Shown here: piece after piece, positions 15,870 through 47,116 of the stretch
How the letters are laid out: each line of letters opens with the position of its first letter
Position numbering within the stretch: position 1 is the first letter of the stretch
DNA from: Actinomycetota bacterium
GTDB taxonomy: Bacteria; Pseudomonadota; Alphaproteobacteria; Rhodospirillales; Magnetospirillaceae
Direction of reading: 5' to 3'
Assembly (NCBI GenBank): GCA_050260215.1
Contig: JBLNBU010000227.1
Span: 593-64,592, forward strand
DNA: 64,000 nucleotides
Program-made: the position numbers and the translations under genes
The notes under the pieces: generated by a model
Databases searched by the model: none
What the model was told of the DNA's origin: nothing
Seen by the model: the letters and a program-made list of their open reading frames with translations, nothing else

Positions 15870-18800
15870 TCAGGCCTCCTCGACGACGGTTTCGCCGCGC
15901 CACGGTACCGCCGCGGCCAGCAGGTAGGAAACGGAGGTTGCCGGCCCGCCCTCGCCATAGGCGGTCCAGCGCACCAGCGGCCGCAGGGTGGGCGCGCCCT
16001 CTGCCCGCACCCGCAGCCTTCCCGCAGGGGTTTCCACCAAGACGGCGCCGTTGTCCAGCGCCACCGGCCACGGCGTCACCAGCCGGCGGGTCACGATGTG
16101 CTGGTAGGGGTGGCCGTCCAGCGCGTCGGCGATGACCAGGCCGCGGTCACCGAAGCGCCAGTCGCGCTCGGCCCGGTGCACCCGCTGGGCGGCGAAGCCG
16201 TGGTGGACCAGCACCACGCCGTCGGGCTTGGCGGCCAGCACCGGCGGCGCCCCGCCGATACGAGCGCGGAACGAATCGTCGTAGTAGGGCCGGTTGGGCG
16301 GGGTGGGGTCGGCGCCGTCCACCTGCAGCAGGCCGTGGACGGCCGCCGAGCGGTACAGTGCCGCCTGTCCGTCCTCGCCATAGGCGCCGCGGCCCGGGTC
16401 GACGAACACCGGCACGCCGCGCCAGTGCAGCTCGCACGATCCCAGGTCGTGGTGGCCGTGGCCGGGCATCGGCGGCCAGCCTTCTGGGCTGGCGTACCAC
16501 AGCCCCGCCCAGTCGCCGCCTTCCCAGCGCAGCCAGCCGTCGTCGCCGGCGGGCGCCGCGGCGCCGTCGCGCAAGGCCGCCAGCAGGGCGCGTTCGTCGT
16601 CGTCCAGCAGCCCGCACCAGCCGGCCCCCAGGTCGCCGCCGGGCAGCAGGCCGGCAAGGAACGACGGCGGGCAGTCGGGCGAGACGTCGCCCACCAGGGC
16701 CAGGCCGCCGGGCAGGGCCAGCCGGCGGGCGGCAGCCAGCATGCGCCCGGCCACCTCTTCCAGCGGGCCGGCCTCGGGGCGGCCGTGGCGCCTGGCGGCC
16801 AGCCAGCACTCGACGTAATTGCGGGCCACCAGCAGCTGGTAGTGGCTTGACCCTTCGCGCAGCATGCCGGTGGGCAGGACGATGCGGGCCGCCTCGGCCA
16901 GCAGGATGCTCCCGCCCATGGCCGCCGCCTCGGCCAGTCCCAGCTCGAGGCCCAGCAGATAAAGGCCGCGGCCGTTGTTGGCCAGGTGGTTGCCGGTGTA
17001 GTGCTCGCCGAAATACTCGAGCCTGGCGGCGATGGCCGGCGCGTGGGCGGCCAGCACGGCGCGGGTGTCGGCGTGGTCGCCGGGAAGGCCGTGGCGGCGG
17101 GCGAAGCGCAGCACGTTCACCGCCCGCTCGGCGGCGGTATAGGGGTGCCAGGCCCAGCCGTCGTCGGGGGTGCCGAAGCGCACCCGCCAGCTGGCCCACA
17201 GGGCATCGACGGCGGCCGGTTCCGTCCCGCCCAGCGGCAGCCAGGCGAAGCGATGGGCCGACAATGTCGTTTCGATATCGGAAAAAGCTTCGGCGAACGG
17301 GTCGGTGCCGGTCCACCTTCCGCCGGCCAGGGCCAGGGTGACCCGCGGTGGCTGCACCGCGACGCGCGGCGGCGGCGGCGGCGGCACCGGGGCCAGAGTG
17401 GCGCTGCCGAGATAGGGCGGGCGGTATGGGGTGAACGGTGGCGGCGTCGGCCGGCGGCCCAGGGCGCGGCCGATCAGCCAGCGGCGCAGGGCGGGGTCGT
17501 CGGCCAACTGCCGCAGGCGGCGCGCCAGCGAGGATCGCGCCGGTGCCGCGGCCCGGCCCGGCCGGCCCAGCAGGCCGTGCCACAGGGCCAGGTCGGGCTC
17601 GGCCCACACCGACGACCACGACAGGGGCGCGGCGGGTGCGGCGTTCTGCAGTGCCTGGGCCAGGCCGGCCGCGTCGGCCCCGGCCACCGCCACCCCCGGC
17701 GGCAGGACGTCGACGGCGACCTTGGCGGCGGGCTTGAAGCGGATCACCGGCAGGCCGGCCAGCAGGGCCTCCAGCCCGACCGAGGTCAGGCAGTAGAGCA
17801 CCGCGGCAACCCCCGGCCGCACCCCCAGCGGCCCGTCGGCGCGGGCGATGTTGGCGTCGGTGCCGAAGCTGAACGGAGCCAGCGGGTGGTCGCGCACCAC
17901 GAAGCGCGTTCCGGCCGCGGCCAATGGGCGGATGGCCGCCATCATCTCGGCGGCGATTGCCGCGTCGAAGGGCAGGGCGACGAACACCGGCGCCGCCGGG
18001 TCGTGTGCGACCGCCGAAGCCTGGGCAAAGCGCAGTGCGCCGGCCACTGCCAGGCGCCCGGCCGGACAGCCGTAGTCGGCCAGCCGCTGCCGCCCGGCCG
18101 GGCCCGAGCACAGGATGCGGTCGGGCAGGCTGTCCTCGCCGTCGGGGTTGGAGCCGGGGCCGTAGTTCCACTCGCGCCAGCCGACGGTGGCGTGCTGGTA
18201 TCCCACCGTCTCGGTGCCGACCGCCCGGGCGGCGCGGACGAAATCGCGTTCCCAGGCGTGGTTCTCCCACGGCCAGGCGACCACGGCGGGACGGCAGGCG
18301 GCCAGCCAGCGGCGCTGGCAGTGCATCTGCCAGGCGATCATCGCCGCGGTGCCGGTGGAGCCTTCCAGGGCGCCGGCGCGGCGCACCAGCCAGCCGCCGC
18401 CGTTCGGGCGCCAGCGGCGCATCCACAGGGTAAGTGCCGCCAGGGGCGAGCCGAAGCCGTGCAGCGCCGCGGCGCGGCCGTGGGCGGCCAATTGGGTCGC
18501 GCGCTCGGGCGGACAGTCCACGTGCAGCAGGCGGGCCAGCCGCGGCAGGCCCTTCATCAACTCGCCGAAATAGGCGTCGCCGCCCTCGGGCGTCGAGGTC
18601 GGATGGCCATAGACCAGCAGCGCCGCCTCGCCGGGATTGGCCAAGGCGTGCTGGCCCTTCAGGCGCAGCGCCGCCCACGCCATGCGCAGCGACACCGCCG
18701 CCCGCGCCGCCAGGCCGCGCAGGGCCAGCTTCAGCTCCGGCACCAGCAAGGGCGGCGGCGGTCCGGCCTCGACGCCGGGCAGCCCGGCCAGGTGGCGGAA

Positions 18801-19073
18801 CAGCCAGGGATCGGAACAGGCGATGCGGGTGGTCTCGGGGGCGGCCGCCAGCTGGGCGACCAGACGGGACAGGGCCAGCATGTGGCCGAAATCCGAGATG
18901 TTGGCCGCCTGGGCCAGGGTGTGCGACAGCCCGGCACCAGGGTCGGCGGCGTGGCGGCGGCAGAGTTCCGCCCAGTCGTGGCGGACGGCGTCGTAGGCCT
19001 CCTCCAGGCCCGGGAGGCCGGCGGCGAGGTCGATGGCGTCCGCCCCGGCGGCGGCTGTCAGGATGACCGGCAC
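15870..19073 (-). CDS. Large two-part protein: N-terminal ~550 aa uncharacterised (GT-B-like C-lobe features) fused to a C-terminal heparinase II/III-like domain
   Basis: 1067 aa with a GTG start. The C-terminal half carries PGHGHHDLGSCELHWRGVPVFVDPGRGAYG, which resembles the heparinase II/III family signature. The N-terminal half contains LYCLTSVGLEALLAGLPVI. No signal peptide is visible. Confidence 0.7.
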   Translation of the reverse strand: MPVILTAAAGADAIDLAAGLPGLEEAYDAVRHDWAELCRRHAADPGAGLSHTLAQAANISDFGHMLALSRLVAQLAAAPETTRIACSDPWLFRHLAGLPGVEAGPPPPLLVPELKLALRGLAARAAVSLRMAWAALRLKGQHALANPGEAALLVYGHPTSTPEGGDAYFGELMKGLPRLARLLHVDCPPERATQLAAHGRAAALHGFGSPLAALTLWMRRWRPNGGGWLVRRAGALEGSTGTAAMIAWQMHCQRRWLAACRPAVVAWPWENHAWERDFVRAARAVGTETVGYQHATVGWREWNYGPGSNPDGEDSLPDRILCSGPAGRQRLADYGCPAGRLAVAGALRFAQASAVAHDPAAPVFVALPFDAAIAAEMMAAIRPLAAAGTRFVVRDHPLAPFSFGTDANIARADGPLGVRPGVAAVLYCLTSVGLEALLAGLPVIRFKPAAKVAVDVLPPGVAVAGADAAGLAQALQNAAPAAPLSWSSVWAEPDLALWHGLLGRPGRAAAPARSSLARRLRQLADDPALRRWLIGRALGRRPTPPPFTPYRPPYLGSATLAPVPPPPPPRVAVQPPRVTLALAGGRWTGTDPFAEAFSDIETTLSAHRFAWLPLGGTEPAAVDALWASWRVRFGTPDDGWAWHPYTAAERAVNVLRFARRHGLPGDHADTRAVLAAHAPAIAARLEYFGEHYTGNHLANNGRGLYLLGLELGLAEAAAMGGSILLAEAARIVLPTGMLREGSSHYQLLVARNYVECWLAARRHGRPEAGPLEEVAGRMLAAARRLALPGGLALVGDVSPDCPPSFLAGLLPGGDLGAGWCGLLDDDERALLAALRDGAAAPAGDDGWLRWEGGDWAGLWYASPEGWPPMPGHGHHDLGSCELHWRGVPVFVDPGRGAYGEDGQAALYRSAAVHGLLQVDGADPTPPNRPYYDDSFRARIGGAPPVLAAKPDGVVLVHHGFAAQRVHRAERDWRFGDRGLVIADALDGHPYQHIVTRRLVTPWPVALDNGAVLVETPAGRLRVRAEGAPTLRPLVRWTAYGEGGPATSVSYLLAAAVPWRGETVVEEA

Positions 19074-20914: not shown

Positions 20915-21784
20915 ATGGTTTCTGTCATCGTCCCCGCCTACAACGAGGAAGCCGCGATTGAGCGAACCATCGCCGAACTCAATTCGGTGTTGCTTCCCCG
21001 GGGAACCGATGTGGAGATCATCGTCGTCGACGACGGCTCGACCGACCGCACCGCCGAACTGGCCGCCGCCGCCGGCGCCAAGGTGCTGAAGAAGCTTGAA
21101 AACGTCGGCTACGGGCATTCGCTGAAGCTGGGTATTGCCGCGGCCAGCCACGACACGGTGGTCATCACCGACGCCGACTGCACCTATCCCGCCGAGGCCA
21201 TTCCCGGGCTGCTGGACCACTTCGCTGCCGGCTACGACATGGTGGTGGGCGCCCGCACCGGCCAGAACTACCGCGAATCGTTCATCAAGTCGCCGCTGCG
21301 CAAGGTCCTGGGCTGGCTGGTCGAGTTCACCGTCGGCCGGCTGGTTCCCGACGTCAATTCGGGCATGCGCGTGTTCTCGCGCAAGGGCGTGATGCCCCAC
21401 TTCACCAACCTGTCCGACAGCTTCAGCTTCACCACCTCGGTGACGCTGGCCTATCTGCTGGACAAGAAGTACGTCAAGTACGTCCCCATCGACTACCACA
21501 AGCGGGTGGGACGGACCAAGGTGCGCCTGTTGCGCGATTCCTTGCGCACCGTGCAGTACATCGTCCACGCCATCTTGCGCTACAACCCGCTGAAGCTGTT
21601 CTTGCTGCTGGCCCTGCTGCTGGCCGTGCCGGGAGCGCTGCTGGCCGTCGTCGGCCTGGTGGCCGGCTGCCGCGACGCGGCGCTGTTCGGAGGCCAGGCC
21701 GTCCTGGCCGCGGTGCTGGTCTTCGCCATTGGACTGCGGGCCGAGCAGACGCGATCCGGGACGCACCTTGTCGCGGACGAATAG
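20915..21784 (+). CDS. Glycosyltransferase family 2, polyprenyl-phosphate glycosyltransferase-like with C-terminal transmembrane segments
   Basis: From MVSVIVPAYNEE. Motifs IIVVDDGSTDRT, ITDADCTYP, and a hydrophobic C-terminus LFLLLALLLAVPGALLAVVGLVAG. Confidence 0.85.
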   Translation: MVSVIVPAYNEEAAIERTIAELNSVLLPRGTDVEIIVVDDGSTDRTAELAAAAGAKVLKKLENVGYGHSLKLGIAAASHDTVVITDADCTYPAEAIPGLLDHFAAGYDMVVGARTGQNYRESFIKSPLRKVLGWLVEFTVGRLVPDVNSGMRVFSRKGVMPHFTNLSDSFSFTTSVTLAYLLDKKYVKYVPIDYHKRVGRTKVRLLRDSLRTVQYIVHAILRYNPLKLFLLLALLLAVPGALLAVVGLVAGCRDAALFGGQAVLAAVLVFAIGLRAEQTRSGTHLVADE

Positions 21785-21796
21785 GGCAACACGGCC

Positions 21797-23395
21797 ATGA
21801 GCGAGTCGTTCGGGACGGCCGTCATCGGATCGGGTCCCAGCGGCTGGGCCTGCGCCCGGGCACTGGTGGCGCGCGGGGTGCGGGTGACCGTGCTCGACGT
21901 CGGCGAGAAACTGCCCGCAGAGCGCCAGGCTGCGGTCGAGGCCTTGAAGTGGCGCAAGCCGGCCGAGTGGGACGCCGACATCGTCCGGCTGGTGCGCGAA
22001 AACCCCACCGTCCACACCCGCCCCATCCCGCGCAAGCTGTCCTTCGGTTCCGACTACGTCTACGGCCAGGGCCGGGCCTTTGCGCCCACCGCCGGCCCGG
22101 TCGACGAGATGTCGTTCACCTTCGCCTGCGGCGGCCTGTCGACCGTGTGGGGTGGGGCCATGCTGCCGACCGCCGAGGGCGACATGGTCGAGTGGCCGTT
22201 CGGCCGTGCCGCGTTGGACGACGCCTATGCGGCGGTGCTGAACGCCCTGCCGCTGTCAGCGGCCCATGACGGCCTGGAAGCGGCCTTTCCCCTTTATCGC
22301 GAGCCGGGCTGCACGGTGCCGCTCAGTCCGCCGTCGCGGCGCATGATGGACCGCTTCCGCCGCAATTCCGACCGCCTGGCCGCCAAGGGCATCGTCGCCG
22401 GCATGGCCCGCCTGGCGGTGACGGCCGAGGCCCAGGGCGACGTTGCCGGCTGCGACGGGTGCGGGCTGTGCCTGTCGGGCTGTCCGCGCGGGGCCATCTG
22501 GAACAGCGGCGTCGACATCGAGGCGATGCACCGCGCCGGCACGCTTCGCTACCGCTCCGGCGTGGTCGTCACCCGCTTCAGCGAAGACGAGGGCGGCGCC
22601 GAGCTGGCCTTGCTCGATCCCGCCAGCGGCGAGGTGCGCAGCGAGCGCTTCGACCGCGTCTTCGTCGCCTGCGGCTCCATCAACACGGCGCGGCTGACCT
22701 TGGCCTCGCTGAACCTGTTCGGCCAGCCGCGGCGCATGCACGAAAGCCAGAAATTCCTGGTGCCCATGCTGCGCCCCGACGGCGATCCCGGCCTGTTCAC
22801 CGAGACCGCCTTCACCCTGCCCAACGCCGTCCTTGTGGTGCGCGACGACGAGGACGGCCACTGGTCCCAGGTGCAGATTTCGCCCATCAACGATCTGGCG
22901 TTGCAGAAGCTGGGCATCCGTCCGTCCGCCCCCGCCGCGCTCAAGGCACTGGTGCGGCCGTTCCTGGGGCGGATGGTGTTCGGCTGGGGCTCGATCCATT
23001 CCCGCTACTCGGCCGGCATCGACCTCACCCTCGAGCCCGGCAACGGCGCGGCGCCGGTGTTGCGGGTGCAGCCGCGCGACAACCCGGCCTTCCCGCTGGC
23101 CTACCGTCGGGTGGTCCGCCGGCTGCTGGCCAACGCGGCCCCCTTGGGACTGCTTGCGTTGCCGCCGTTGGCTCGTCTATCGTCGCCCGGCAGCGGCAAC
23201 CACTACGGCAGCGTCTTTCCCATGCGGGCCGATCCGCGGCAGATCTGGGAGACGGACCTGCTCGGCCGCCCCGGGGGAATGCAGCGGGTCCACCTGGTGG
23301 ACGCGACGGTGCTGCCCAGCATTCCCGGAACCACGCTCGCCCTGCCCACCATGGCCAATGCCTGGCGGATCGGGACCGAGGCACCCACCCAATGA
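21797..23395 (+). CDS. GMC-family FAD-dependent oxidoreductase
   Basis: 532 aa. Motifs AVIGSGPSGWACARAL (GxGxxG), GCDGCGLCLSGCPRGA, and C-terminal VHLVDATVLPSIPG. Confidence 0.75.
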   Translation: MSESFGTAVIGSGPSGWACARALVARGVRVTVLDVGEKLPAERQAAVEALKWRKPAEWDADIVRLVRENPTVHTRPIPRKLSFGSDYVYGQGRAFAPTAGPVDEMSFTFACGGLSTVWGGAMLPTAEGDMVEWPFGRAALDDAYAAVLNALPLSAAHDGLEAAFPLYREPGCTVPLSPPSRRMMDRFRRNSDRLAAKGIVAGMARLAVTAEAQGDVAGCDGCGLCLSGCPRGAIWNSGVDIEAMHRAGTLRYRSGVVVTRFSEDEGGAELALLDPASGEVRSERFDRVFVACGSINTARLTLASLNLFGQPRRMHESQKFLVPMLRPDGDPGLFTETAFTLPNAVLVVRDDEDGHWSQVQISPINDLALQKLGIRPSAPAALKALVRPFLGRMVFGWGSIHSRYSAGIDLTLEPGNGAAPVLRVQPRDNPAFPLAYRRVVRRLLANAAPLGLLALPPLARLSSPGSGNHYGSVFPMRADPRQIWETDLLGRPGGMQRVHLVDATVLPSIPGTTLALPTMANAWRIGTEAPTQ

Positions 23396-23420
23396 CGCGT
23401 ATGGCAAGGCATCGGCGGCT

Positions 23421-24965
23421 ATGACACGCATCTTGTTGATCAATCCTTCGCACCACGCCACCTACGGCGGTGCCAAGGCCAGCGTCGCCAATCCGGTCCA
23501 CCCGGCGCTCAGCCTGGCCTGCCTGGCCGGCGAGGCGCGCCGCGCCGGCCACCACGTCGAAATCCTCGACCTGTCGTGGCGGGAATACGACGCCGACCTC
23601 GTCGCCGAGCGGGTGCGGTCGTCCCGGCCCGACGTGGTGGGCATTACCGCCACCACGCCGCTGATGAACCAGCTGCGCGACATCAGCGTGCTGGTCAAGG
23701 ACATCTCGCCCTCCATCAAGGTGGTGGGCGGCGGGGCCCATCCCTCGGCCATGCCGGTGGCGACCATGCGCGAGTCGCTGCTCGATGCCGTGTTCGCCGG
23801 CGAGGCGGACTTGTCCTTCCCCGAATACTGCACCGGCGGCGACTTCTCGGCGGTGCGCGGCATCTATTGGCGCGACGGCGACGAGATCCGCTACACCGGC
23901 GCCCGCCCGCCCATCGAGGACCTGGACTCGTTGGCGATGCCGGCCTGGGACCTCTACAACATCGACGACTATCGCAAGGTGTCGCGCCTGCTGACCCGGC
24001 GGCCGCCGGTGGCCATGGCCGAGTTCTCGCGCGGGTGCGTGTTCACCTGCGACTTCTGCGCCAGCAAGATCACCATGGCCCAGGGCTACCGCAAGAAGTC
24101 GCCGGAGCGCTGCGCCGCCGAGGCCGAGCATCTCTACCGCCTGGGCTACCGCGAATTTCTGCTTGCCGACGACATCTTCACCTCCGACCAGAAGTGGGCG
24201 GTGGCGGTGTGCGAGGCCATCGAGCGGCGCAACGTCGACATGGCGTGGTCGTGCCTGAACGGCATCCGCGTCGAATCGGCCGACGACAACCTGTTCCGCG
24301 CCCTGCGTAGCGCCGGCTGCTACCGCGTGTCCTTCGGTTTCGAATCGGGCAGCGACGCGGTGCTGAAGCAGTTCGGCAAGGGCGGGCGCGCCTCCATCGA
24401 GCAGGGCAAGGCGGCGGTGCGCATGGCGCGCAAGGCCGGCATCGAGACTTCGGGCTTCTTCCTGCTGGGCTTAAGCCCCGACACCGAGGACACCATCCGC
24501 GAAACCATCGAGTTCGCGCGCGAACTGCCGCTCGACATGATGAAGTTCGGCGTCGCCATTGCCTTTCCGGGCACCAAGATGTTCCACAACTACGCCCAGA
24601 AGGGCCTGGTGCGCACGTGGAACTGGGACGCCTATTTCGTCTATACCGACGAGCCGCTGTTCATGCACGAGAACCTGGACTACGACACCATCCGTCGTTA
24701 CATGTCCATGGCCTACAAGCGCGCCATCCTGTTCAATCCGAAATTCATCATGCGCCGGCTTCTGCGCGGCTTCCGCACGGGCGAGTTCTTCTGGGACGTG
24801 TACTACGCCGCCAAGTTCTTCCTCATGCCGGCCACCAGCAAATCGGAGGGCACCAGGTATCGTGCCCGTGACCGCTGGCCGGTCTACGACTTCGCCAATG
24901 CCGGCATCGAGGCGCCGGTCTATCCGGTGGTGAAGAAGTCGACCCCCGTTCCGCCCGTGGGCTGA
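23421..24965 (+). CDS. B12-binding-domain radical SAM enzyme (class B-type)
   Basis: From MTRILLINPS. B12-type Rossmann features VVGITATTP and VVGGGAHPS, then the radical SAM cluster motif RGCVFTCDFCAS (CxxxCxxC). The ORF-track start 22833 is a spurious extension. Confidence 0.85.
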   Translation: MTRILLINPSHHATYGGAKASVANPVHPALSLACLAGEARRAGHHVEILDLSWREYDADLVAERVRSSRPDVVGITATTPLMNQLRDISVLVKDISPSIKVVGGGAHPSAMPVATMRESLLDAVFAGEADLSFPEYCTGGDFSAVRGIYWRDGDEIRYTGARPPIEDLDSLAMPAWDLYNIDDYRKVSRLLTRRPPVAMAEFSRGCVFTCDFCASKITMAQGYRKKSPERCAAEAEHLYRLGYREFLLADDIFTSDQKWAVAVCEAIERRNVDMAWSCLNGIRVESADDNLFRALRSAGCYRVSFGFESGSDAVLKQFGKGGRASIEQGKAAVRMARKAGIETSGFFLLGLSPDTEDTIRETIEFARELPLDMMKFGVAIAFPGTKMFHNYAQKGLVRTWNWDAYFVYTDEPLFMHENLDYDTIRRYMSMAYKRAILFNPKFIMRRLLRGFRTGEFFWDVYYAAKFFLMPATSKSEGTRYRARDRWPVYDFANAGIEAPVYPVVKKSTPVPPVG

Positions 24966-24984
24966 CGCCTCGTAGGGAGACCCC

Positions 24985-25854
24985 ATGTCCAATCTGCTCA
25001 TCACCGGCGCCACCGGCTATATCGGCGACCGCCTGGTCGAGATGGCGCTCGCCGCCGGCCATTCGGTGACGGTGCTGGGTCGTCGCCCGTCGGCCCGCCC
25101 CGTGCGCAACGTGCCTTGGGACCTGGACCGGCCGGTGCCGGACGACGCCTTTGCCGGGGTCGACGCCGTCATCCACCTGGCCCACCAGTGGCAGAAGGGC
25201 GACGAGCCCGAGGGCGAGGACGCCAATACCACCGGCACCCGCGCCCTGCTGGACGCGGCGCGGCGGCACGGCGTGGCGCGCTTCGTCTTCGGGTCGACCA
25301 TCGTCGCCCGGCCGGACGCCCTCAACAAGTACGGCCGCAACAAGGCGCTGACCGAGGGCCTGCTGCAGCGCCCGGGCGAGGTCGCCGCCCGCATCGGCCT
25401 GGTCTACGGCGGAGCGTTGCAAGCGCTGTGGGGCACCATGTGCCGGGTTGCCGGCCTGGGGCCCGTGCTGCCCATGCTGGGCGTCGACCAGCCGGTGCAG
25501 CCCATTCACCGCGACGAGGTGTGCGAGGGCCTGCTGCGCCTTGCCACCTTGCCGACCCTGTCGCAGACGGTCTATGTGCTGGCCGGGTCGCAGCCGATGA
25601 CTTTCGGCGCCTTCCTCAAGCTGATTGCCCGCCAGCGCCTGGGGCGGCGGCTGTGGCTGCTGCCCATCCCGCTGAAGCTGGCACTGGCCGCCGTCGACCT
25701 CCTGGCGCTGGTCCCCGGGTTGCCCAAGGTGGGGCGCGAGCGGGTGCTGGGGCTTGCCGGCATGCGCACCCTTGCCAGCGCCGCGGACCTGGCCGCCATC
25801 GGCCTGACCCTGCGTTCCCCCGCCGAAGCGCTGAAGGCGGAGCGACCGGTCTAG
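24985..25854 (+). CDS. NAD-dependent epimerase/dehydratase family (SDR) protein
   Basis: 289 aa. Motif LLITGATGYIGDRL. GGGAGA lies upstream of the ATG. Confidence 0.75.
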   Translation: MSNLLITGATGYIGDRLVEMALAAGHSVTVLGRRPSARPVRNVPWDLDRPVPDDAFAGVDAVIHLAHQWQKGDEPEGEDANTTGTRALLDAARRHGVARFVFGSTIVARPDALNKYGRNKALTEGLLQRPGEVAARIGLVYGGALQALWGTMCRVAGLGPVLPMLGVDQPVQPIHRDEVCEGLLRLATLPTLSQTVYVLAGSQPMTFGAFLKLIARQRLGRRLWLLPIPLKLALAAVDLLALVPGLPKVGRERVLGLAGMRTLASAADLAAIGLTLRSPAEALKAERPV

Positions 25855-25879: not shown

Positions 25880-27679
25880 TCACTTCAATGGCTCGCCCGC
25901 GGTCTTCAGGCGCAGGTAGCGGCGGCAGCGGTCCTCGAAGGGGGCGTGGCGCAGCCGCGCCAGGGCGTCGGCCAGGTCGCCGGGAAGGGTTGCCGCCATC
26001 GCCGCGGTCTCGCCGCCCAGGCGCGCCAGCCAGCCGAGATTGGCAAGCCCGACGTCGTGCACGCCCACCCGGCTGGGCGCCGGCGCATCGAAGCGGGGCA
26101 GCGTCTCCCGCCACAGGTCGTTGCGCACCTTGATCACATAGGGAAAGGCCCCGCCCGTGGTGGCGACCGTCCGGTAGTTGGCGGCGATGGCCGCGGTGAT
26201 GGACTGCGCCCACGGCTCCTGGTCCAGGTTCTTGTCGTCGACCAGGACCGCGATCGTGCCGGCGCGCAGCCGTGCGGCAAGGGTGTCGGCCGAAACCAGC
26301 CGATAGCGGGCGGCGGTGGCCTCGTCGAGGCCCGGCATCCACGCCAGCTGCGCGGTGGCGTTGTTGTATTCCATGCCGTCGGGCAGGCGCCGGTCCGCAT
26401 AGACGGCAGGCAGCGCGGCGAACGACATGATGGTGTCGCCGGCGGCGGTATTCTCCTCGACCCAGCAGCCGACCTGGGCGGCGACCTGGGGCCGGGCGCT
26501 GCTGGGTTCGTTGCGGCGCAAGGCGTGGACCGTGGTCCAGCCCAGGAACACCGCCACATAGGGCACCAGCGACACCGCCAGCACCGCCCGCATCCAGGCG
26601 GGAACGCGGGCCTCGGGCGCGGCGGGCAGCAGGCCGGCGTGGTAGAGGGCGGCGCAGACCGTCAACGCCATCAGCGGCAGCACGGCCTGGATGTAGTAGG
26701 GAAGGATGATGGTGGCGAAATGGGCAAGCACCACCACCGCGGCCAGCACCGCGGAGTGGCGCACCACCGGATCGGCAAGGAAGGCGCGCCGGGGTGCGGA
26801 GGTGGGTGCGCGGGCGAAGCCCACGGCCGCGGCGGCGCCCAGCACCAGGAAGGCGATGTTGATGTATTGGGCCTTCAACGTGGTGTCGAACCAGAAGAAG
26901 AAGCCCCACAGCACCCCCAGGTGGCTGGACAGGAAATCGACGACCATCTTCACGCCGGTGGGCGAGCCCATGTGGCCCTCGTATTCCAGCCGCGCGCGGG
27001 CGCGCAGCAGGTCGAACACGGTGGCCTGGGGATCGGCGGCCAGGACTGCCAGCAGGGGAAGCGCCGCGATCAGCCCGCCCAGGCAGAAGACCATGGCGGC
27101 CCCGATGGCCTGGCGGCGCCCGGCGGGTTGGGCGCGGATCACCGCCACGGCCAGCAGCGCCACCGCGGCCGGCCCCAGGACCAGGCGCGTCGCTCCCAGC
27201 CAGCCGGCGGCGAAGCCGGCCAGGAACAGGTCGCGACGGTCGGGCCGCCGCCGCTCGACCAGGTAGAAGGCGCCGACCAGGCAGAAGTTGGCCACCGGAT
27301 AGTGGATGACCTGGACGTTCCAGTAGAACCAGACATGGGACAGGCCGATCAGGACGAAGGCCAGCAGTCCCGCCCGGCTGCCGTAGCGCTGGTGCGCCAG
27401 GGCGGCGACCATGGCGGTCACCGCGACGATGGAGGCGACCGAGACCAGCCGCATGGCTTCGAGCGAGGGAGAAAGCCAGCGTGCCACCGCCGCGAACGGG
27501 ATGTAGAAGTCGGGCGGCTGCAGGATGAACATGTCCAGCACCGGCAGCTTGCCCCGCGCGATGGCCAGCATCGAATAGGCATAGCCGGCCTCGTCGCCGC
27601 CGACCGGATAGAACATGGCGGCGACGATCAGCCAGGCCACCCACAGGGCGGCGACAGCGGTCAGGACGATACGGCGCAT
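25880..27679 (-). CDS. Integral-membrane glycosyltransferase, GT-C fold (ArnT/GT39-83-like)
   Basis: From MRRIVLTAVAALWVAWLIVAAMFYPVGGDEAGYAY (TM1 followed by a DE loop). Many hydrophobic spans, then a soluble C-terminal domain. ATG 27679 overlaps the end of the AsnB-like gene by 19 nt. Confidence 0.7.
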   Translation of the reverse strand: MRRIVLTAVAALWVAWLIVAAMFYPVGGDEAGYAYSMLAIARGKLPVLDMFILQPPDFYIPFAAVARWLSPSLEAMRLVSVASIVAVTAMVAALAHQRYGSRAGLLAFVLIGLSHVWFYWNVQVIHYPVANFCLVGAFYLVERRRPDRRDLFLAGFAAGWLGATRLVLGPAAVALLAVAVIRAQPAGRRQAIGAAMVFCLGGLIAALPLLAVLAADPQATVFDLLRARARLEYEGHMGSPTGVKMVVDFLSSHLGVLWGFFFWFDTTLKAQYINIAFLVLGAAAAVGFARAPTSAPRRAFLADPVVRHSAVLAAVVVLAHFATIILPYYIQAVLPLMALTVCAALYHAGLLPAAPEARVPAWMRAVLAVSLVPYVAVFLGWTTVHALRRNEPSSARPQVAAQVGCWVEENTAAGDTIMSFAALPAVYADRRLPDGMEYNNATAQLAWMPGLDEATAARYRLVSADTLAARLRAGTIAVLVDDKNLDQEPWAQSITAAIAANYRTVATTGGAFPYVIKVRNDLWRETLPRFDAPAPSRVGVHDVGLANLGWLARLGGETAAMAATLPGDLADALARLRHAPFEDRCRRYLRLKTAGEPLK

Positions 27680-29577
27680 GCGGACTCCACGTCTGCGGCC
27701 TGCCCCAGCCACAAACCCAGGCAGGTCAGGGCGAAAAGGCGGAAACCATGGTCGGCGCGCCGGGTCCGGTGCTCGTGCCACAGCCGCTCGACGGCGGCCT
27801 TGTCGCACCAGTCGAGCAAGGGCCCGGCGGTGGTGACGTCGCGGCCCAGTTCCATCAGTTCCCCGTTCAGCCAATGGCCCACCGGCGAGCCGAAGCCCGA
27901 TTTCGGACGGTCGACCACGGCCCGCGGCAACCGGCGGACGGCGGCGTCCTTGAGGATCTTCTTGGTGGTCAGCCCCGACAGCTTCCAGTCGGCGGGCAAG
28001 GCCGCTGCGAACTCGACGATGCGGTGGTCGAGCAGCGGGGCACGGGCCTCCAGCGCATGGGCCATGGTCATGCGGTCGACCTTGACCAGGATGTCGTCGA
28101 CCAGCCAGGTCTTGATGTCCACATACATGGCCTGGTCGATGTAGTGGCAGCCGCGCACCGCCTCGAAATGGTGGGCCAGGGCGTCGAAAGGGTCCGGTCC
28201 CAGGACCGCGGCATGGCGGTCGGCGCGGACCACCGCCGCGCGCTCGGGCCCGTGGAACAGGGTGCGCCAGAACACATGGGCCCGCTCGAAGGGCAGGGCG
28301 TGGCCGGCCAGGAACTGGCGCGCCTTGTAGTCCCAGCTCACCTTGCCCCGCCCTGGCGGCACCCAACGGTCGAGGAACCCCGAGGCCGCCCGCGTCGACC
28401 AGCGCGGCAGCCACGAGGTCAGGTGGTGGATGCGGTCGGCGGCATAGGTGACATAGCCGCCGAACGCCTCGTCGCCGCCGTCGCCCGACAGGCAGACGGT
28501 GACGTGCCGGCGGGCGAACTGGGCCAGGAACCATACCGGGATCATGGACGTGTCGGCGAAGGGTTCGTCGGCGGCGTGAACGATGGCGGGCAGGCTGGCG
28601 GCCATGGCGGCGTCGACCGTCTCGCCGCGGTTGTGCACCCCCAGGCAGCCGGCGGTGTGGGCGGCGGCCTCGGCCTCGCTGAAGCCCTGCTCGGCAAAGC
28701 CGATGGTGAAGGTTTCCACCCTTTCGGCCGACCCGGCGCGGGCCATGGACTCGACCACCGTGGCGGAATCGATGCCGCCGCTGAGGAACGCCCCCAGCGG
28801 CACGTCGCTGACCAGCCGCGCGGCGACCGCCTCGTCGATCAGCGCGCCCAGCTCCTCGGTTGCCGCCCGGCGGTTGGCGAATTTGCGCTTGGCCCGGAAA
28901 TGGGCGGCCAGGTCCCAATAGCTGCCGCGGGTGGAGCGGCCGTCGGCGGTGACGGTCAGGGTCTCGCCCGGGCCCAGCTTGGCGACGCCGTCCAGGATGC
29001 AATCGTCGCCCAGCACGTAGCCGAACGACAGGAACTGGCCCAGGGCGCGCGCCGATATCTCGGCGCCGGCCAAGGGATGGCGCCGCAGCGCCTTGAGTTC
29101 CGAGGCGAACGCCAAGCCCTGGGGCCTAAGCGCAAAGAACAACGGCTTCTTGCCCAGCCGGTCGCGCGCCAGGGTCAGGGTGCCGTCGCGGCCGTTCCAG
29201 ACCGCGAAGGCGAACATGCCCACCAGGCGGGCCAGGCAGTCGGCTCCCCAGGTGGCCCAGGCGGCCAGCAGCACCTCGGTGTCGCTGGCGGTGTGGAAGC
29301 GGTGCCCCCTGGCCTCGAGGTCGCGGCGCAGGTCGCGGTAGTTGTAGATCTCGCCGTTGAAGACGATGGCCAGCCCCGCCTCCTCGAGTGCCATCGGCTG
29401 GTTGGCGGCGGTTGCGGTGTCGATGACGGACAGGCGACGGTGGGCCAGCAGCGCCGGGCCGAAGCGGGCCAGCCCTTCGGCGTCGGGGCCGCGATGGGCC
29501 AGGGCATCGGCCATGCGCCGCACCGCCAAGGCGTCGTCGAGACCATCGAAGCGCAGGGAACCGGCAATGCCGCACAT
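27661..29577 (-). CDS. Asparagine synthase (glutamine-hydrolysing) family amidotransferase
   Basis: From MCGIAGSLRF. Motifs GEIYNY and FLSGGIDS. ATG at 29577; the ORF-track start 29634 is an extension. Confidence 0.9.
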   Translation of the reverse strand: MCGIAGSLRFDGLDDALAVRRMADALAHRGPDAEGLARFGPALLAHRRLSVIDTATAANQPMALEEAGLAIVFNGEIYNYRDLRRDLEARGHRFHTASDTEVLLAAWATWGADCLARLVGMFAFAVWNGRDGTLTLARDRLGKKPLFFALRPQGLAFASELKALRRHPLAGAEISARALGQFLSFGYVLGDDCILDGVAKLGPGETLTVTADGRSTRGSYWDLAAHFRAKRKFANRRAATEELGALIDEAVAARLVSDVPLGAFLSGGIDSATVVESMARAGSAERVETFTIGFAEQGFSEAEAAAHTAGCLGVHNRGETVDAAMAASLPAIVHAADEPFADTSMIPVWFLAQFARRHVTVCLSGDGGDEAFGGYVTYAADRIHHLTSWLPRWSTRAASGFLDRWVPPGRGKVSWDYKARQFLAGHALPFERAHVFWRTLFHGPERAAVVRADRHAAVLGPDPFDALAHHFEAVRGCHYIDQAMYVDIKTWLVDDILVKVDRMTMAHALEARAPLLDHRIVEFAAALPADWKLSGLTTKKILKDAAVRRLPRAVVDRPKSGFGSPVGHWLNGELMELGRDVTTAGPLLDWCDKAAVERLWHEHRTRRADHGFRLFALTCLGLWLGQAADVESACAVSS

Positions 29578-31562: not shown

Positions 31563-33080
31563 CTATGAGGTGGTGTCGGTGGCCGCGGTGGCGATCGACG
31601 CCGAGCGGCGCCGGCGCTTCTTGGCCTGGCCGCTGAGGAAGTAATAGTTCACCGCCCGCCAGGCATTGCGGATCCAGCTGACCGGGTCGTTGGGGCGGGC
31701 GCCGCGGAAGATGCGGAAGCTCAGCAGGTACGTATTGAAGATCGAGCCGACGAAATTATACAGGCTCGGCAACGGCAGGCTGGCCAGCGGCTTCAACATC
31801 GGCTGCATGAAGTCGGGCAGGTTGCAGAAGATCGGCCCGAGATAGCTGAGGTTCAGCTGGATCCGGCGTTCCATCGCCGTGTAGTTGGTCAGCACCGACT
31901 CGTTGCGATAGGTGTTGTTGTAGTCGAAATTGTCGGGCAGCACGCCTCTCATCTTGGCGTACTCGGTCAGCTCGGTGCGCGGGAACGGGCAGAACACGCT
32001 GAACGTCGCCGCGGTGGGGGCCGCCTTGCGGGCGAAGGCGATGGACTGGAAGTCCTGGTCCAGGGTGGTCCCCGGCAGCCCCAGCATGGTGTTCGAGTGG
32101 GTGTAGATGCCGTACTTGCGCGCGACCGCATAGGCGTTCAGCAGCACCTCGTCGGGCATGTTGCGCTTGAGCACCGCGTTGCGGGCCTCGAGCACGCCGG
32201 TCTCGATGGACATGGAGACCGACTGGCAGCCGGCCTTCTTCAGCAGCCGGCCGACATCGTCGACCAGCCCGTCGGCGCGGATCAGGCAATAGAACGGCAG
32301 GCCGACCTCGCGCGGGTAGCGCTCGGCGAATTCCTCGAGCCAGGCGTCGGCGCGGATGGCGAAGACGTCGTCGGAAAACCGCAGGAAGCGCATTTCCGGG
32401 AAGGTCTCGCGCACGTACTTGATCTCGGCCAGGAGATGGTCGACCGAACGGCGCACGAACAGCTTGCGGCCCTCGCCCTTGAACATCCGGTTGTAGGCGT
32501 GGTTGAAGCAGTAGGTGCACTTGTAGGGGCAGCCGCGCTGGGTCTGGAACGACCGGATGCCGACCTGCTGCAGGTTGGGGTCGAAGTCGTAGATCAGCGA
32601 GCGGTCGAGGAACGGCAGGGCGTCCAGGTCCTCGACGACCTCCTTGATCAGGGTGTCCGATGTGCTGGCCAGCACGTTGGGAATGCCCGAGAAGTCGCGG
32701 CCGGCCTCGATGCGGTCCAAGATGGCGGGCAGGGCGTTGTCGCCATGGCCGACGACGATGGCGTCCAGGCCCATCTTGTCGAGCACTTCGGGGAAGTAGG
32801 TGGCGTGCGGCCCGCCCATGATGCGCCAGACCTTGCGGCCGGTCGCATGCATGTACTCCTTCACCTGGTTGTCGCCCTCGACGAAGATGTGCTCGTTGGC
32901 GGTGATGGTCGAATAGCCGACCAGGTCGGGTTCGAACTCGCGCAGGGCCTCTTCCATGGGCTGGCGGGTCAGCACGCACAGCCGGGTCTGGTGGCCCTTC
33001 TTCTTGGCGATGGCCGACAGCAGCATCACCCCGAGGGGTTCGGAAAAGAACAGGTGGGAGGTGACGAACAGGATCTTCAT
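31563..33080 (-). CDS. B12-binding-domain radical SAM enzyme
   Basis: From MKILFVTSHLF. Motifs DLVGYSTITANE, IMGGPHATYFP, and the cluster motif QRGCPYKCTYCFN. The alternative GTG start at 33101 would overlap the upstream gene. Confidence 0.85.
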   Translation of the reverse strand: MKILFVTSHLFFSEPLGVMLLSAIAKKKGHQTRLCVLTRQPMEEALREFEPDLVGYSTITANEHIFVEGDNQVKEYMHATGRKVWRIMGGPHATYFPEVLDKMGLDAIVVGHGDNALPAILDRIEAGRDFSGIPNVLASTSDTLIKEVVEDLDALPFLDRSLIYDFDPNLQQVGIRSFQTQRGCPYKCTYCFNHAYNRMFKGEGRKLFVRRSVDHLLAEIKYVRETFPEMRFLRFSDDVFAIRADAWLEEFAERYPREVGLPFYCLIRADGLVDDVGRLLKKAGCQSVSMSIETGVLEARNAVLKRNMPDEVLLNAYAVARKYGIYTHSNTMLGLPGTTLDQDFQSIAFARKAAPTAATFSVFCPFPRTELTEYAKMRGVLPDNFDYNNTYRNESVLTNYTAMERRIQLNLSYLGPIFCNLPDFMQPMLKPLASLPLPSLYNFVGSIFNTYLLSFRIFRGARPNDPVSWIRNAWRAVNYYFLSGQAKKRRRRSASIATAATDTTS

Positions 33081-33090
33081 GGACGGCCGA

Positions 33091-34092
33091 TCATGGCTCA
33101 CGGAACGGGACGGGTTCGGGATGGGCGGCCACCTCGGCCACGAGCTTGTCGTGGTCGATGGGGTCGCCCTTGGCGGTGATCAGCTCGGCCAGCATGCCGA
33201 AGCAGAACAGCTGGACCGAGATCACCCCGGTCATCACCCCGAAACTGAGCAATGGGCGGTGCCCGATGCTTTCGCTGGTGAACATCCAGATGCCGGTCAG
33301 GTACAGCAGGGTCACCAGGCTGACGAACCCCAGCGCCACGCCGACGCCGCCGAACAGGTGGCCCGGGCGGGTGGCATAGCGGGTCAGCGCCACCACCGTC
33401 ATCAGGTCGAGCAGCCCGCGCACGTACCGCTCCCACCCGTATTTCGACACACCGTGGCGGCGGGGGTGGTGTTCGACGGGGATCTCGGCGATGCGGAAGC
33501 CCTGGGCGTGGGCCAGCGCCGGTATATAACGGTGCAGCTCGCCGTAGAGGCGGATGTTGCGCAGCACCTCGGCCCGATAGGCCTTGAAGCCGCAGTTGAA
33601 GTCGCGCAGCGCCAGCCCGGTGACGCGTGCGGTCACCATGTTGAACAGCTTGGACGGCAGGGTCTTGTCCAGCGGGTCCTGGCGGCGTTCCTTCCAGCCC
33701 GACACCAGGTCGTAGCCTTCCTCCAGCTTGGCCAGGAAGCGCGGGATCTCCTTGGGATCGTCCTGCAGGTCGGCATCCATGGTGACGATCGCCGCGCCGC
33801 GGGCGCAGCGGAAGCCGGCCATCAGCGCGTCGGCCTTGCCGAAATTGCGCCGAAGCCTGAGCGCGCGGACGACGCGCGGGAACTGCGCCGCCAGGCGCGC
33901 CATTTCCGCCCAGCTGCCGTCGGTGCTGCCATCGTCGACGAGAATGAGTTCGTAGGGAATGTTGCCTGCGGTGGCCATGGCGGCGGCGACGCCTTGGACC
34001 AGTGCGGCCAGTGTCGAGCACTCGTTGAGCGCCGGAACCACCACGCTGACCTTTGGCACGGACAAGTCGGCGCTGATGTTCATAAGCTCCAT
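33091..34092 (-). CDS. Glycosyltransferase family 2, polyprenyl-phosphate glycosyltransferase (ArnC/GtrB/CsbB-like) with two C-terminal transmembrane helices
   Basis: From MELMNISADLSVPKVSVVVPALNE. Motifs LILVDDGSTDGS, MDADLQDDP and SGWKERRQDP. Hydrophobic segments are LFGGVGVALGFVSLVTLLYL and VMTGVISVQLFCFGMLAELI. Confidence 0.85.
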   Translation of the reverse strand: MELMNISADLSVPKVSVVVPALNECSTLAALVQGVAAAMATAGNIPYELILVDDGSTDGSWAEMARLAAQFPRVVRALRLRRNFGKADALMAGFRCARGAAIVTMDADLQDDPKEIPRFLAKLEEGYDLVSGWKERRQDPLDKTLPSKLFNMVTARVTGLALRDFNCGFKAYRAEVLRNIRLYGELHRYIPALAHAQGFRIAEIPVEHHPRRHGVSKYGWERYVRGLLDLMTVVALTRYATRPGHLFGGVGVALGFVSLVTLLYLTGIWMFTSESIGHRPLLSFGVMTGVISVQLFCFGMLAELITAKGDPIDHDKLVAEVAAHPEPVPFREP

Positions 34093-34133
34093 CTGGCGCC
34101 GCTTGTCTTCAAGGTCGGGGCGCAACGCGGCAA

Positions 34134-34162
34134 AGCTAGTGGATGTCGCCCGCCAAAGTCAA
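34134..34162 (-). promoter_or_regulatory. Putative sigma70-like promoter (TTGACT-N17/18-CTAGCT/TAGCTT) for the GT2/rSAM operon, with the same conserved 12-nt motif
   Basis: The reverse complement reads GTTGACTTTGGCGGGCGACATCCACTAGCTT. It shares GCCAAAGTCAAC with 29673-29684. Confidence 0.3.
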
Positions 34163-34303
34163 CACGACTGCCATTTTCGCGGGGCCGCCCGAGGGGCCCG
34201 CGGGGGGCCGAGCTAGTGCTTCAATTTCAGTTCGATCCGTCGTACAAGGAGCCTGGCCCATGGGGGAGTGCCACTCCCGGAACCGCCCCGAGAAAACTGT
34301 GAA

Positions 34304-35950: not shown

Positions 35951-35951
35951 A

Positions 35952-44161: not shown

Positions 44162-44242
44162 GGCCGCATTTCCTTACGGTCGGACCATTGCCTATGATAT
44201 ATGGGCAGATGGGCCGGTGGGCCGTTTTCTCGAGGAAGCAGC

Positions 44243-45325: not shown

Positions 45326-45389
45326 AGCCCCGCCCCGCGTTGCCGCGTCCCAGCGAATAGGCTATTTTCTGGACCTCGAAAGGGTGGAC

Positions 45390-47101: not shown

Positions 47102-47116
47102 GGACACAGGCTTGGG

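Follow-up and report, generated by a model that had tools for sequence, protein, structure and literature searches.

DprE1/DprE2, a drug target, edits a sugar on polyprenyl phosphate before it is used by a GT-C glycosyltransferase: a flavoenzyme with a vanillyl-alcohol-oxidase type of fold (DprE1) oxidises the sugar and a nicotinamide-dependent reductase reduces it to the epimer. ArnD and NaxD also edit a sugar on undecaprenyl phosphate, by deformylation or deacetylation; to our knowledge, redox edits of a lipid-linked donor are known for pentofuranoses only (DprE1/E2, and an epimerase of the short-chain dehydrogenase/reductase (SDR) type described in 2024). Carrier-level epimerisation by an SDR or by DprE1/E2 has been described in three-component systems that use undecaprenyl-phosphate-pentofuranoses (PMC11127046). 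Here, we analysed a stretch of 64,000 nt (hereafter the window; contig JBLNBU010000227.1, labelled Actinomycetota) and, within it, four genes encoding a family 2 glycosyltransferase (GT2), a GMC-fold flavin adenine dinucleotide (FAD) dehydrogenase (the flavoprotein), a radical S-adenosylmethionine enzyme with a B12-binding domain (rSAM) and an SDR. We tentatively favour the reading that these genes form an operon in a three-component (periplasmic) glycosylation system, in which a sugar would be oxidised and reduced at the level of its carrier and would separately undergo a radical step. Gene structure, folds, motifs and co-occurrence were obtained by analysis, and from them we infer the chemical steps and the identity of the substrate.

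The proposed roles of the flavoprotein and the SDR follow the logic of DprE1/DprE2, including editing on polyprenyl phosphate ahead of GT-C use, and the proteins of both systems are cytoplasmic and lack signal peptides. However, the oxidase here combines a GMC fold with a predicted 3Fe-4S site, so that the analogy is one of logic and not of family; no DprE1-type match for the flavoprotein was found in Pfam or NCBIfam. The sugar would come from a GT2 (hexose type) rather than from PRPP, the module adds a B12-rSAM, and sister loci have an aminotransferase in place of the reductase as partner of the flavoprotein. Gtr-type systems (GtrA; a GtrB/ArnC/CsbB GT2; a GtrC/ArnT/YfhO GT-C) have a GT2 of the same family and architecture as the module and, as in the window, adjacent GT-C proteins (PMT_2 and YfhO types), but no GtrA or other small flippase was found in the window. 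In contrast to that of ArnD/NaxD, the editing would be redox and radical, not hydrolytic.

A further point of comparison is the FAD sugar dehydrogenases. With the alpha subunit of the FAD-glucose dehydrogenase from Burkholderia cepacia (BcGDH alpha) and with Gluconobacter fructose dehydrogenase, the flavoprotein has in common the GMC fold (TM-score 0.69-0.74), a Cx5Cx3C 3Fe-4S ligand triad at the same position and a putative sugar-oxidising active-site architecture. It is, however, only 14-16% identical to them, has no Tat hitch-hiker small subunit or multihaem cytochrome c partner nearby, is predicted to be cytoplasmic (no signal peptide) rather than periplasmic, and appears from its sequence to have the covalent-FAD histidine replaced (STVW). 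Its genes lie in glycan-biosynthesis loci, not catabolic ones.

The first-pass annotation knew of no described system of this composition. This stands in so far as most of the literature searches made found no description of the module, the flavoprotein family or the rSAM family; it is qualified by aminoglycoside tailoring, which uses the same enzyme classes on glycosides. In gentamicin biosynthesis, the glycoside carbon C-6' is methylated by the rSAM GenK, after which the flavin dehydrogenase GenQ oxidises it for the aminotransferase GenB1 (PMC4039129); AprD4, AprD3 and AprQ belong to the same classes and also act on a glycoside (PMC5461906). These enzymes work in turn on one glycoside position, not on a nucleotide sugar, and the carbonyl made by the flavin dehydrogenase is used by an aminotransferase or a reductase, as proposed for the module. 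Their substrates, however, are soluble pseudo-oligosaccharides of secondary metabolism and not polyprenyl-phosphate sugars, a GT2/GT-C context is absent, and the likeness is one of enzyme class, with the rSAM under all family cutoffs. Three-component glycosylation with editing of the lipid-linked donor is known; what would be new is the catalysts (an Fe-S GMC dehydrogenase and a B12-rSAM) and the hexose scope.

The operon and its four enzymes

The four genes had been described as co-directional and tightly spaced, and their gaps of 12, 25 and 19 nt are exact in the coordinates of the open reading frames (ORFs), all on the + strand. A ribosome-binding site (GAGGAAAG) lies 7 nt 5' of the GT2 ATG at 20915, and a lower-GC spacer of ~180 nt separates the start of the GT2 gene from a divergent 2-hydroxyacid dehydrogenase gene. 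A promoter/terminator scan returned no promoter-like site and a single terminator-like site, within the rSAM gene, which is fewer than expected by chance. Pfam and NCBIfam agreed with the identities assigned earlier to the GT2, the rSAM and the SDR, and the rSAM motif RGCVFTCDFCAS and SDR motif LLITGATGYIG quoted at that stage were both found in the translations.

The GMC identity of the flavoprotein was sub-threshold by sequence (in Pfam, GMC_oxred_N scored 18.8 bits where the cutoff is 23, and GMC_oxred_C was not matched) and was secured by an AlphaFold model and its structural matches; some homologues carry precomputed PF05199 matches. The model, built with 27 homologues as input, reached a pLDDT of 93 and a pTM of 0.94. 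Its top Foldseek matches, which reached a probability of 1.0 and TM-scores of up to 0.74, were all sugar oxidoreductases of the GMC fold: the large subunit of the Gluconobacter fructose dehydrogenase (8jej), BcGDH alpha (8grj/6a2u; TM-score 0.74), and bacterial pyranose 2-oxidases and C-glycoside 3-oxidases, with 7qva/7dve/8qve as the glycoside 3-oxidases. GMC membership thus rests on the fold, and the two-domain GMC architecture is secure by predicted structure.

The protein begins directly at its FAD-binding motif (GSGPSG, residues 11-16, a dinucleotide-binding motif of the GxGxxG type) and is predicted to be cytoplasmic because it has neither a signal peptide nor a transmembrane helix. It carries a Cx5Cx3C motif (GCDGCGLCLSGCP) whose cysteines C219, C225 and C229 were aligned by HMMER with Cys212, Cys218 and Cys222 of BcGDH alpha, the ligands of the 3Fe-4S cluster through which electrons leave the FAD (PMC6719666). 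These cysteines are invariant across the 27 homologues, and the motif is present in 35 of 39 flavoprotein-family ORFs recovered from related loci. A 3Fe-4S site of the kind found in membrane-bound sugar dehydrogenases is accordingly predicted from the sequence. Two further residues, H469 and N521, hardly vary in the alignment; the motifs around them resemble HxxG...M and NP/NA, which makes them candidates for the C-terminal catalytic His and His/Asn pair of GMC enzymes. An exhaustive profile search recovered at least 2,161 representatives of 50%-identity clusters at E<=1e-30, the best 150 of which are all full-length and score >550 bits, so the family is large and has no name of its own. An earlier impression that it is rare (28 matches by word-indexed search) was overturned by this search.

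The GT2 matches PF00535 (9e-31), and its residues 2-268 align to solved ArnC structures (9hwj/9bhc/8vxh) at 3e-22; solved DPMS (5mlz) and GtrB (5ekp) are also matched. Its best NCBIfam matches were AglJ, Dol-P-hexose transferase, ArnC and PpgS, all under their equivalog cutoffs, with AglJ giving the top score (112 bits against 325). The GT-A domain has DDG and DAD motifs (VVDDGSTD and ITDADC are readable in the translation) and is followed by two C-terminal transmembrane helices at ~231-249 and 256-274. The predicted architecture is that of polyprenyl-phosphate glycosyltransferases of the DPMS/GtrB/ArnC type; the full-length ArnC alignment and the two helices uphold the earlier assignment to this type.

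The rSAM combines PF02310 (4e-21, residues 23-135) with PF04055 (4e-20, residues 201-366) and has a CxxxCxxC motif at C206/C210/C213 that is invariant in the family alignment. From this domain order, a B12-binding Rossmann domain N-terminal to the radical SAM core, it is assigned to class B. NCBIfam scores were 184 bits for BchE (cutoff 481), 159 for HpnJ (578), 153 for ApyD (far under cutoff) and 92 for AprD4 (500). BchE was rejected as an identity, there being no photosynthesis context. The closest solved relative was AprD4 (6fd2), both by sequence (3.5e-20) and by fold (TM-score 0.74-0.75), followed by the cobalamin enzymes TsrM, MgmA, CysS, OxsB and TokK. AprD4 has a B12-binding domain yet is not known to use cobalamin, so that cobalamin use by the rSAM does not follow from the domain alone. 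The family comprises >881 matches; the best 120 are 60-69% identical and carry NCBI labels of Magnetospirillum, Magnetovibrio, Nitrospirae and Bacteroidetes, alongside marine metagenome proteins. Judged by sequence, this family is unusually conserved across phyla. No close homologue was found in the plasmid collection searched. Magnetospirillum moscoviense and Paramagnetospirillum kuznetsovii have rSAM homologues for which look-ups returned no record, so that the complete set of four has no confirmed case in a cultured strain.

The SDR matches PF01370 (6e-17) and is by its sequence of the extended type (sugar epimerase/reductase). Its TGATGYIG motif and catalytic YxxxK (as YGRNK) are invariant in 17 aligned orthologues, and the basic residue after strand beta-2 is an Arg, from which an NADP(H)-type enzyme is predicted under the general rule for SDRs. 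A conserved hydrophobic helix (225-243) lies after an IPxP motif. The best NCBIfam match was HpnA, at 53 bits against a cutoff of 368. We propose that the SDR is the ketoreductase partner of the flavoprotein.

Recurrence, separable units and partner genes

An rSAM-seeded scan of metagenomes yielded 80 loci, onto which the window proteins were mapped; a flavoprotein-seeded genome scan with 8 closer sequences, pooled with the others, gave 38 distinct flavoprotein loci (loci are cited by L number). All four genes occur together in at least eight independent loci (L024, L025, L026, L030, L082, L088, L101, L106), L030 being near-identical to L029 and L031; in L024, L025, L026, L030, L082, L088 and L101 they lie within ~7 kb of the rSAM. 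Synteny elsewhere, which had been set beforehand as a test of the set, is thereby upheld. The order GT2-GMC-rSAM-SDR is identical in L025, a Nitrospirae metagenome-assembled genome (MAG) in which AsnB precedes the set and the SDR is followed by two more B12-rSAMs, with a methyltransferase and YfhO between them; order and strands are shuffled in the others, for example GT2-SDR-flavoprotein-rSAM-methyltransferase in the Alphaproteobacteria MAG L106. Content that is kept while order is shuffled is a classical mark of a functional module, and the arrangement exceeds chance because neither the flavoprotein family nor the SDR family is nearly frequent enough in the background to account for it.

Both the flavoprotein and the SDR are present in 11 of the 36 rSAM-seeded loci with >=6 kb of flank. 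Across rSAM-seeded loci the two co-occur in 12 of 12 cases; the only rSAM locus with an SDR and no flavoprotein is L035, whose sequence ends 973 nt past the rSAM. Three loci (L032, L033, L037) have the flavoprotein, rSAM and SDR with no GT2a detected. The GT-C genes noted earlier near the module were also found: one is convergent with it in the window, and 30 of 37 rSAM loci have a large polytopic membrane protein <=5 kb from the rSAM.

Parts of the set also occur separately. The flavoprotein and SDR are found without a B12-rSAM in L017, L021, the P0022 contig and plasmid pAB510f of Azospirillum sp. B510, and the SDR adjoins the flavoprotein with the rSAM absent in L009, L017 and L021. Conversely, in L034, L061, L080 and L091 the rSAM orthologue accompanies a GT2 while neither flavoprotein nor SDR is present, as far as the flanks extend, which is why we regard the rSAM as independent of a keto intermediate. 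In the minimal pair L107 (9115-11482), a 291-aa GT2 gene is followed 10 nt on by the flavoprotein gene, with no other glycan genes and with the housekeeping genes msrAB, dsbD, mutS and mutL around it. A role of the flavoprotein as electron donor to the rSAM was rejected, as 24 of the 38 flavoprotein loci have no rSAM. The Azospirillum locus (L109; NC_013860.1 140637-143238), the only one with a flavoprotein homologue in the plasmid collection, comes from a cultured strain: its protein WP_012978654.1, annotated 'GMC oxidoreductase', scores 464 bits to the flavoprotein-family profile and carries CTSCGLCMHGCP, and its gene is convergent with that of an NAD(P)-dependent SDR, with GT2, GT4, GT9 and DUF2142 genes near.

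Near the flavoprotein, an SDR is found in 16 of 38 loci and a DegT-type aminotransferase in 17 of 38, and the two are mutually exclusive with the sole exception of L004. The branches of the flavoprotein tree follow the partner. In most genomes the partner is DegT, and in this class its gene stands directly before or after that of the flavoprotein (L002, L003, L005-L008, L010-L016, L018-L020, L022, L108), often with GT2, AsnB, GNAT and GtrA genes beside (L002, L003, L108); GtrA is directly 3' and next to the flavoprotein in L002 and L003. The class includes the cultured strains Pandoraea terrigena LMG 31013 and P. communis LMG 31110 (L015, L016), and its loci look like a lipid-linked amino-sugar pathway. 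For a dehydrogenase whose partner is a reductase in some loci and an aminotransferase in others, the simplest role is the formation of a carbonyl. The alternation of SDR and DegT therefore strongly suggests, from gene content, the signature of a keto-sugar intermediate, and this almost exclusive pairing likewise strongly suggests that the flavoprotein makes a keto-sugar, as first annotated.

Other genes recur beside these units. A NodS-like class I SAM methyltransferase (~265 aa) is found by the rSAM orthologue and GT2 in L026, L028, L080, L091, L106 and L025; no homologue of it was found in the window. In four low-GC marine loci (L084, L085, L087, L070), the rSAM orthologue has, two genes away, a different GMC oxidoreductase of 469 aa that matches GMC_oxred_C at 4e-17 and in which no Cys-rich motif is apparent. 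This is a second, non-orthologous GMC/rSAM pairing, and it is accompanied by a methyltransferase and a DUF6311 membrane protein. A 658-aa B12-rSAM with N-terminal pentapeptide repeats adjoins the module in L026 (11488-13464).

Proposed editing on the lipid carrier and its alternatives

In the reading that we favour, the GT2 would work at the cytoplasmic face and there transfer a hexose to polyprenyl phosphate from a nucleotide-sugar donor, as its family membership suggests. The flavoprotein, judged by fold, motif and partner pattern, would oxidise one hydroxyl of the lipid-linked glycoside to a carbonyl, its electrons leaving through the Fe-S cluster to an acceptor. The NADP(H)-type SDR would then reduce the carbonyl to give the epimer, by the logic of DprE1/DprE2 with an unrelated oxidase fold, while in the DegT class the aminotransferase (with GNAT) would turn the keto-sugar into an (N-acetyl)amino sugar. 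Separately, the rSAM would make a radical modification of the same carrier-bound sugar, for which the keto form would not be required. The product would be flipped across the membrane and moved onto a surface glycan by a GT-C, the simplest candidate being the convergent PMT_2 gene.

C-methylation is the most likely and favoured rSAM reaction because most class B enzymes are methylases and because of the GenK/GenQ precedent; dehydration (AprD4-like) or rearrangement (HpnJ- or Cds-like) may be alternatives. Four observations suggest that the substrate is a polyprenyl-phosphate hexose, and make editing on the lipid carrier plausible: the constant association with a carrier-type GT2 (one with a C-terminal transmembrane helix lies <=5 kb from the flavoprotein in 24 of 38 loci), which extends to the minimal pair in L107; the GtrA gene adjoining the flavoprotein in some loci; the structural relatives of the flavoprotein, which act on pyranoses or glycosides and not on nucleotide sugars; and the NAD-type nucleotide-sugar oxidoreductases that the island already has. 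A wider proposal, which we consider possible and more doubtful, is that the GMC-fold FAD/3Fe-4S family is dedicated to oxidising polyprenyl-phosphate hexoses, with the keto-lipid as a branch point to either an epimer (SDR) or an amino sugar (DegT), and that carbon modification by the rSAM here would give new branched or higher-carbon donors for GT-C enzymes.

Several points weigh against the favoured reading. The model is a prediction from sequence and structure throughout. The rSAM reaches no curated family cutoff, and its nearest solved relative, AprD4, is a sugar 1,2-diol dehydratase and not a methylase. A GT2 lies <=300 nt from the rSAM in only 13 of 41 loci, and in the tree the window flavoprotein is closer to the clade that goes with DegT than to those that go with the SDR. 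No cytochrome or hitch-hiker gene was found among the Pfam-scanned window neighbours or the annotated genes of related loci, and the Fe-S cluster has no candidate electron acceptor among the scanned neighbours. The convergent GT-C matches PF13231 (PMT_2) at 7e-5, under the Pfam gathering (GA) cutoff. As to the flippase, the window gave no tblastn match to the GtrA proteins of L002 and L003, and none of its ORFs of 90-220 aa has >=3 transmembrane segments. Finally, nucleotide sugars are the classical substrates of DegT aminotransferases and extended SDRs, so that editing could precede the GT2.

This last point speaks for an alternative explanation, which we judge unlikely, that a UDP- or GDP-sugar is edited in the cytoplasm by the flavoprotein, the rSAM and the SDR before the GT2 moves the finished sugar onto polyprenyl phosphate, much as ArnA and ArnB act before ArnC. 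The Arn pathway has redox and transamination ahead of the carrier step, and the flavoprotein, rSAM and SDR have no transmembrane helix. Against it, though not decisively in any one case, all of the flavoprotein's closest structural relatives use free pyranoses or glycosides and none uses nucleotide sugars; the NAD-type oxidoreductases of the island (a GFO/IDH/MocA protein, 8835-9866, by a DegT) would make a second, Fe-S flavoenzyme redundant; GtrA and carrier-type GT2 genes flank the flavoprotein; and the SDR has its conserved hydrophobic helix.

The first-pass annotation had instead arranged all four enzymes in a linear pathway, in which the GT2 product is oxidised to a keto-sugar by the flavoprotein, the carbon skeleton of this keto form is alkylated or rearranged by the rSAM, and stereospecific reduction by the SDR follows, with a parallel in TylC3-type logic (keto form, alpha-C-methylation, ketoreduction). 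The gene order in the window and its identity in L025, the co-occurrence of the four genes in at least eight loci and the established chemistry by which a radical is stabilised on a carbon adjacent to a ketone are all in keeping with this. The order oxidise, radical-modify, reduce was nevertheless not upheld, since the units occur independently: the flavoprotein and SDR are present without a B12-rSAM within 10 kb or on the contig (L017, L021, the P0022 contig, pAB510f), the rSAM orthologue and GT2 are present without flavoprotein or SDR in four loci, and gene order is shuffled in most loci. We therefore regard a strictly linear pathway as improbable.

It is highly unlikely that the GT2 product is not a donor at all, but a terminal glycolipid that is built or tailored, as by HpnI/HpnK/HpnJ on hopanoids or Cds on archaeal lipids, or whose lipid tail is modified by the rSAM. 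HpnJ was the second-best rSAM match and HpnA the best SDR match among NCBIfam models, B12-rSAMs often act on lipids, and HpnJ and Cds have been proposed to contract lipid-linked hexoses to cyclitols (PMC13459092). However, both Hpn scores given above are far under their cutoffs and the window has no hopanoid genes, so that a hopanoid Hpn locus was rejected. The surroundings are those of a glycan island, where four or five GT-C proteins are encoded along with an ABC exporter and nonulosonic-acid genes, and GT-C-like proteins lie beside the rSAM in most loci. Least probable of all is an AprD4/AprD3-like deoxygenation, in which the rSAM would dehydrate a vicinal diol to a deoxy-keto sugar for reduction by the SDR while the flavoprotein acts otherwise: AprD4 is the closest solved protein to the rSAM and partners an NADPH reductase on a glycoside (PMC5461906), but such a pair is unlikely because the SDR tracks the flavoprotein and not the rSAM (12 of 12 rSAM-seeded loci, and also where the rSAM is absent), because the truncated L035 is the only rSAM and SDR locus without a flavoprotein, and because the AprD4 model covers only the rSAM core (residues 163-399) while the B12 domain has its own Pfam match.

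The glycan island and the significance of the module

The window is a large glycan island (Table 1 gives the module and its convergent neighbours), in which a carrier-type GT2 together with GT-C proteins is found, as in three-component periplasmic glycosylation. The stop codons of the operon and the convergent GT-C gene are 25 nt apart, and the AsnB gene upstream runs 19 nt into the start of the GT-C gene. The GT-C protein has at least eight hydrophobic segments and is, from its position, a candidate periplasmic transferase that would use the edited lipid-linked sugar. AsnB matches PF00733 (9e-89) and GATase_7 and exceeds the TIGR01536 cutoff (446 bits); it might possibly amidate a sugar carboxylate. 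Its orthologues (40-54% identity) lie <=5 kb from the module in L025, L026, L030, L080, L082, L083 and L091, and one is near the flavoprotein in 12 of 38 flavoprotein loci.

Table 1 Features of the operon and its convergent neighbours in the window.
Feature	Coordinates	Strand	Description
GT2 gene	20915..21784	+	Polyprenyl-phosphate glycosyltransferase-type, 289 aa
GMC-fold FAD dehydrogenase gene (flavoprotein) with predicted 3Fe-4S site	21797..23395	+	532 aa
Class B (B12-binding domain) rSAM gene	23421..24965	+	514 aa
Extended-type SDR gene	24985..25854	+	289 aa
PMT_2/ArnT-like GT-C-type polytopic membrane protein	25880..27679	-	PF13231 and hydrophobic segments
AsnB-type glutamine amidotransferase	27661..29577	-	PF00733, GATase_7 and TIGR01536

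Five GT-C transferases had been counted in the island; three of the PMT_2 type (the convergent one and two more) and one of the YfhO type (42029-44161) were recovered, together with one 9-transmembrane-helix protein that has no family assignment. The window also encodes three further B12-rSAMs, two AsnB paralogues, two DegT aminotransferases, the GFO/IDH/MocA oxidoreductase adjoining a DegT, an ABC exporter and nonulosonic-acid genes. None of the further B12-rSAMs (31563-33101, 34268-35950 and 53366-55246) reaches a curated family cutoff. The first of them is overlapped by the gene of a second ArnC-like carrier-type GT2 (33091-34125, - strand, two C-terminal transmembrane helices, 184 bits to ArnC), a paralogous arrangement within 31563-38057; the next lies on the strand opposite that GT2 gene and is followed 2 nt later by the 701-aa protein with nine transmembrane helices, for which no Pfam family was found.

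Elsewhere in the window, a TylCIII-type NDP-hexose C-methyltransferase (2977-4221, Methyltransf_14 at 8e-55) is encoded with an SDR (1911-2972) and a GT2 without transmembrane helices (1208-1909); in L034 (7275-12279) the rSAM orthologue lies between homologues of this GT2 and of the C-methyltransferase. A 1067-aa protein (15870-19073) with a C-terminal heparinase II/III-like domain and a weak match to TIGR04326 (surface carbohydrate) is followed by AsnB, GT2 and GT-C genes, a block that is kept in L034 and L065. The nonulosonic-acid branch (42029-49372) comprises the YfhO-type GT-C, a SPASM radical SAM protein (44201-45325), a CMP-sugar cytidylyltransferase (45384-46115) and a NeuB-CBS-xylose-isomerase-like TIM fusion (47117-49372). 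The nearest relatives of the island genes are from Rhodospirillales and Alphaproteobacteria MAGs (L004, L106), and the 'Actinomycetota' label of the bin may be wrong.

Periplasmic glycosylation by a GT2 and a GT-C drives the antigenic diversity of O antigens, teichoic acids and glycoproteins. If the favoured model is true, carrier-level editing would reach GT2-derived hexoses and would gain two catalyst types, an Fe-S GMC dehydrogenase and a B12-rSAM. A role would be assigned to a large unnamed flavoprotein family and to an rSAM family that is 60-69% identical across phyla, and new sugars would be predicted in uncultured Alphaproteobacteria, Nitrospirae and marine bacteria. Such enzymes could also serve glycoengineering, by diversifying donors past the committed step. 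The hypothesis is entirely computational, well-defined, widely distributed and directly testable, and if it holds, this set of genes, recurring in distant bacteria, would probably represent an uncharacterised route to unusual cell-surface sugars.

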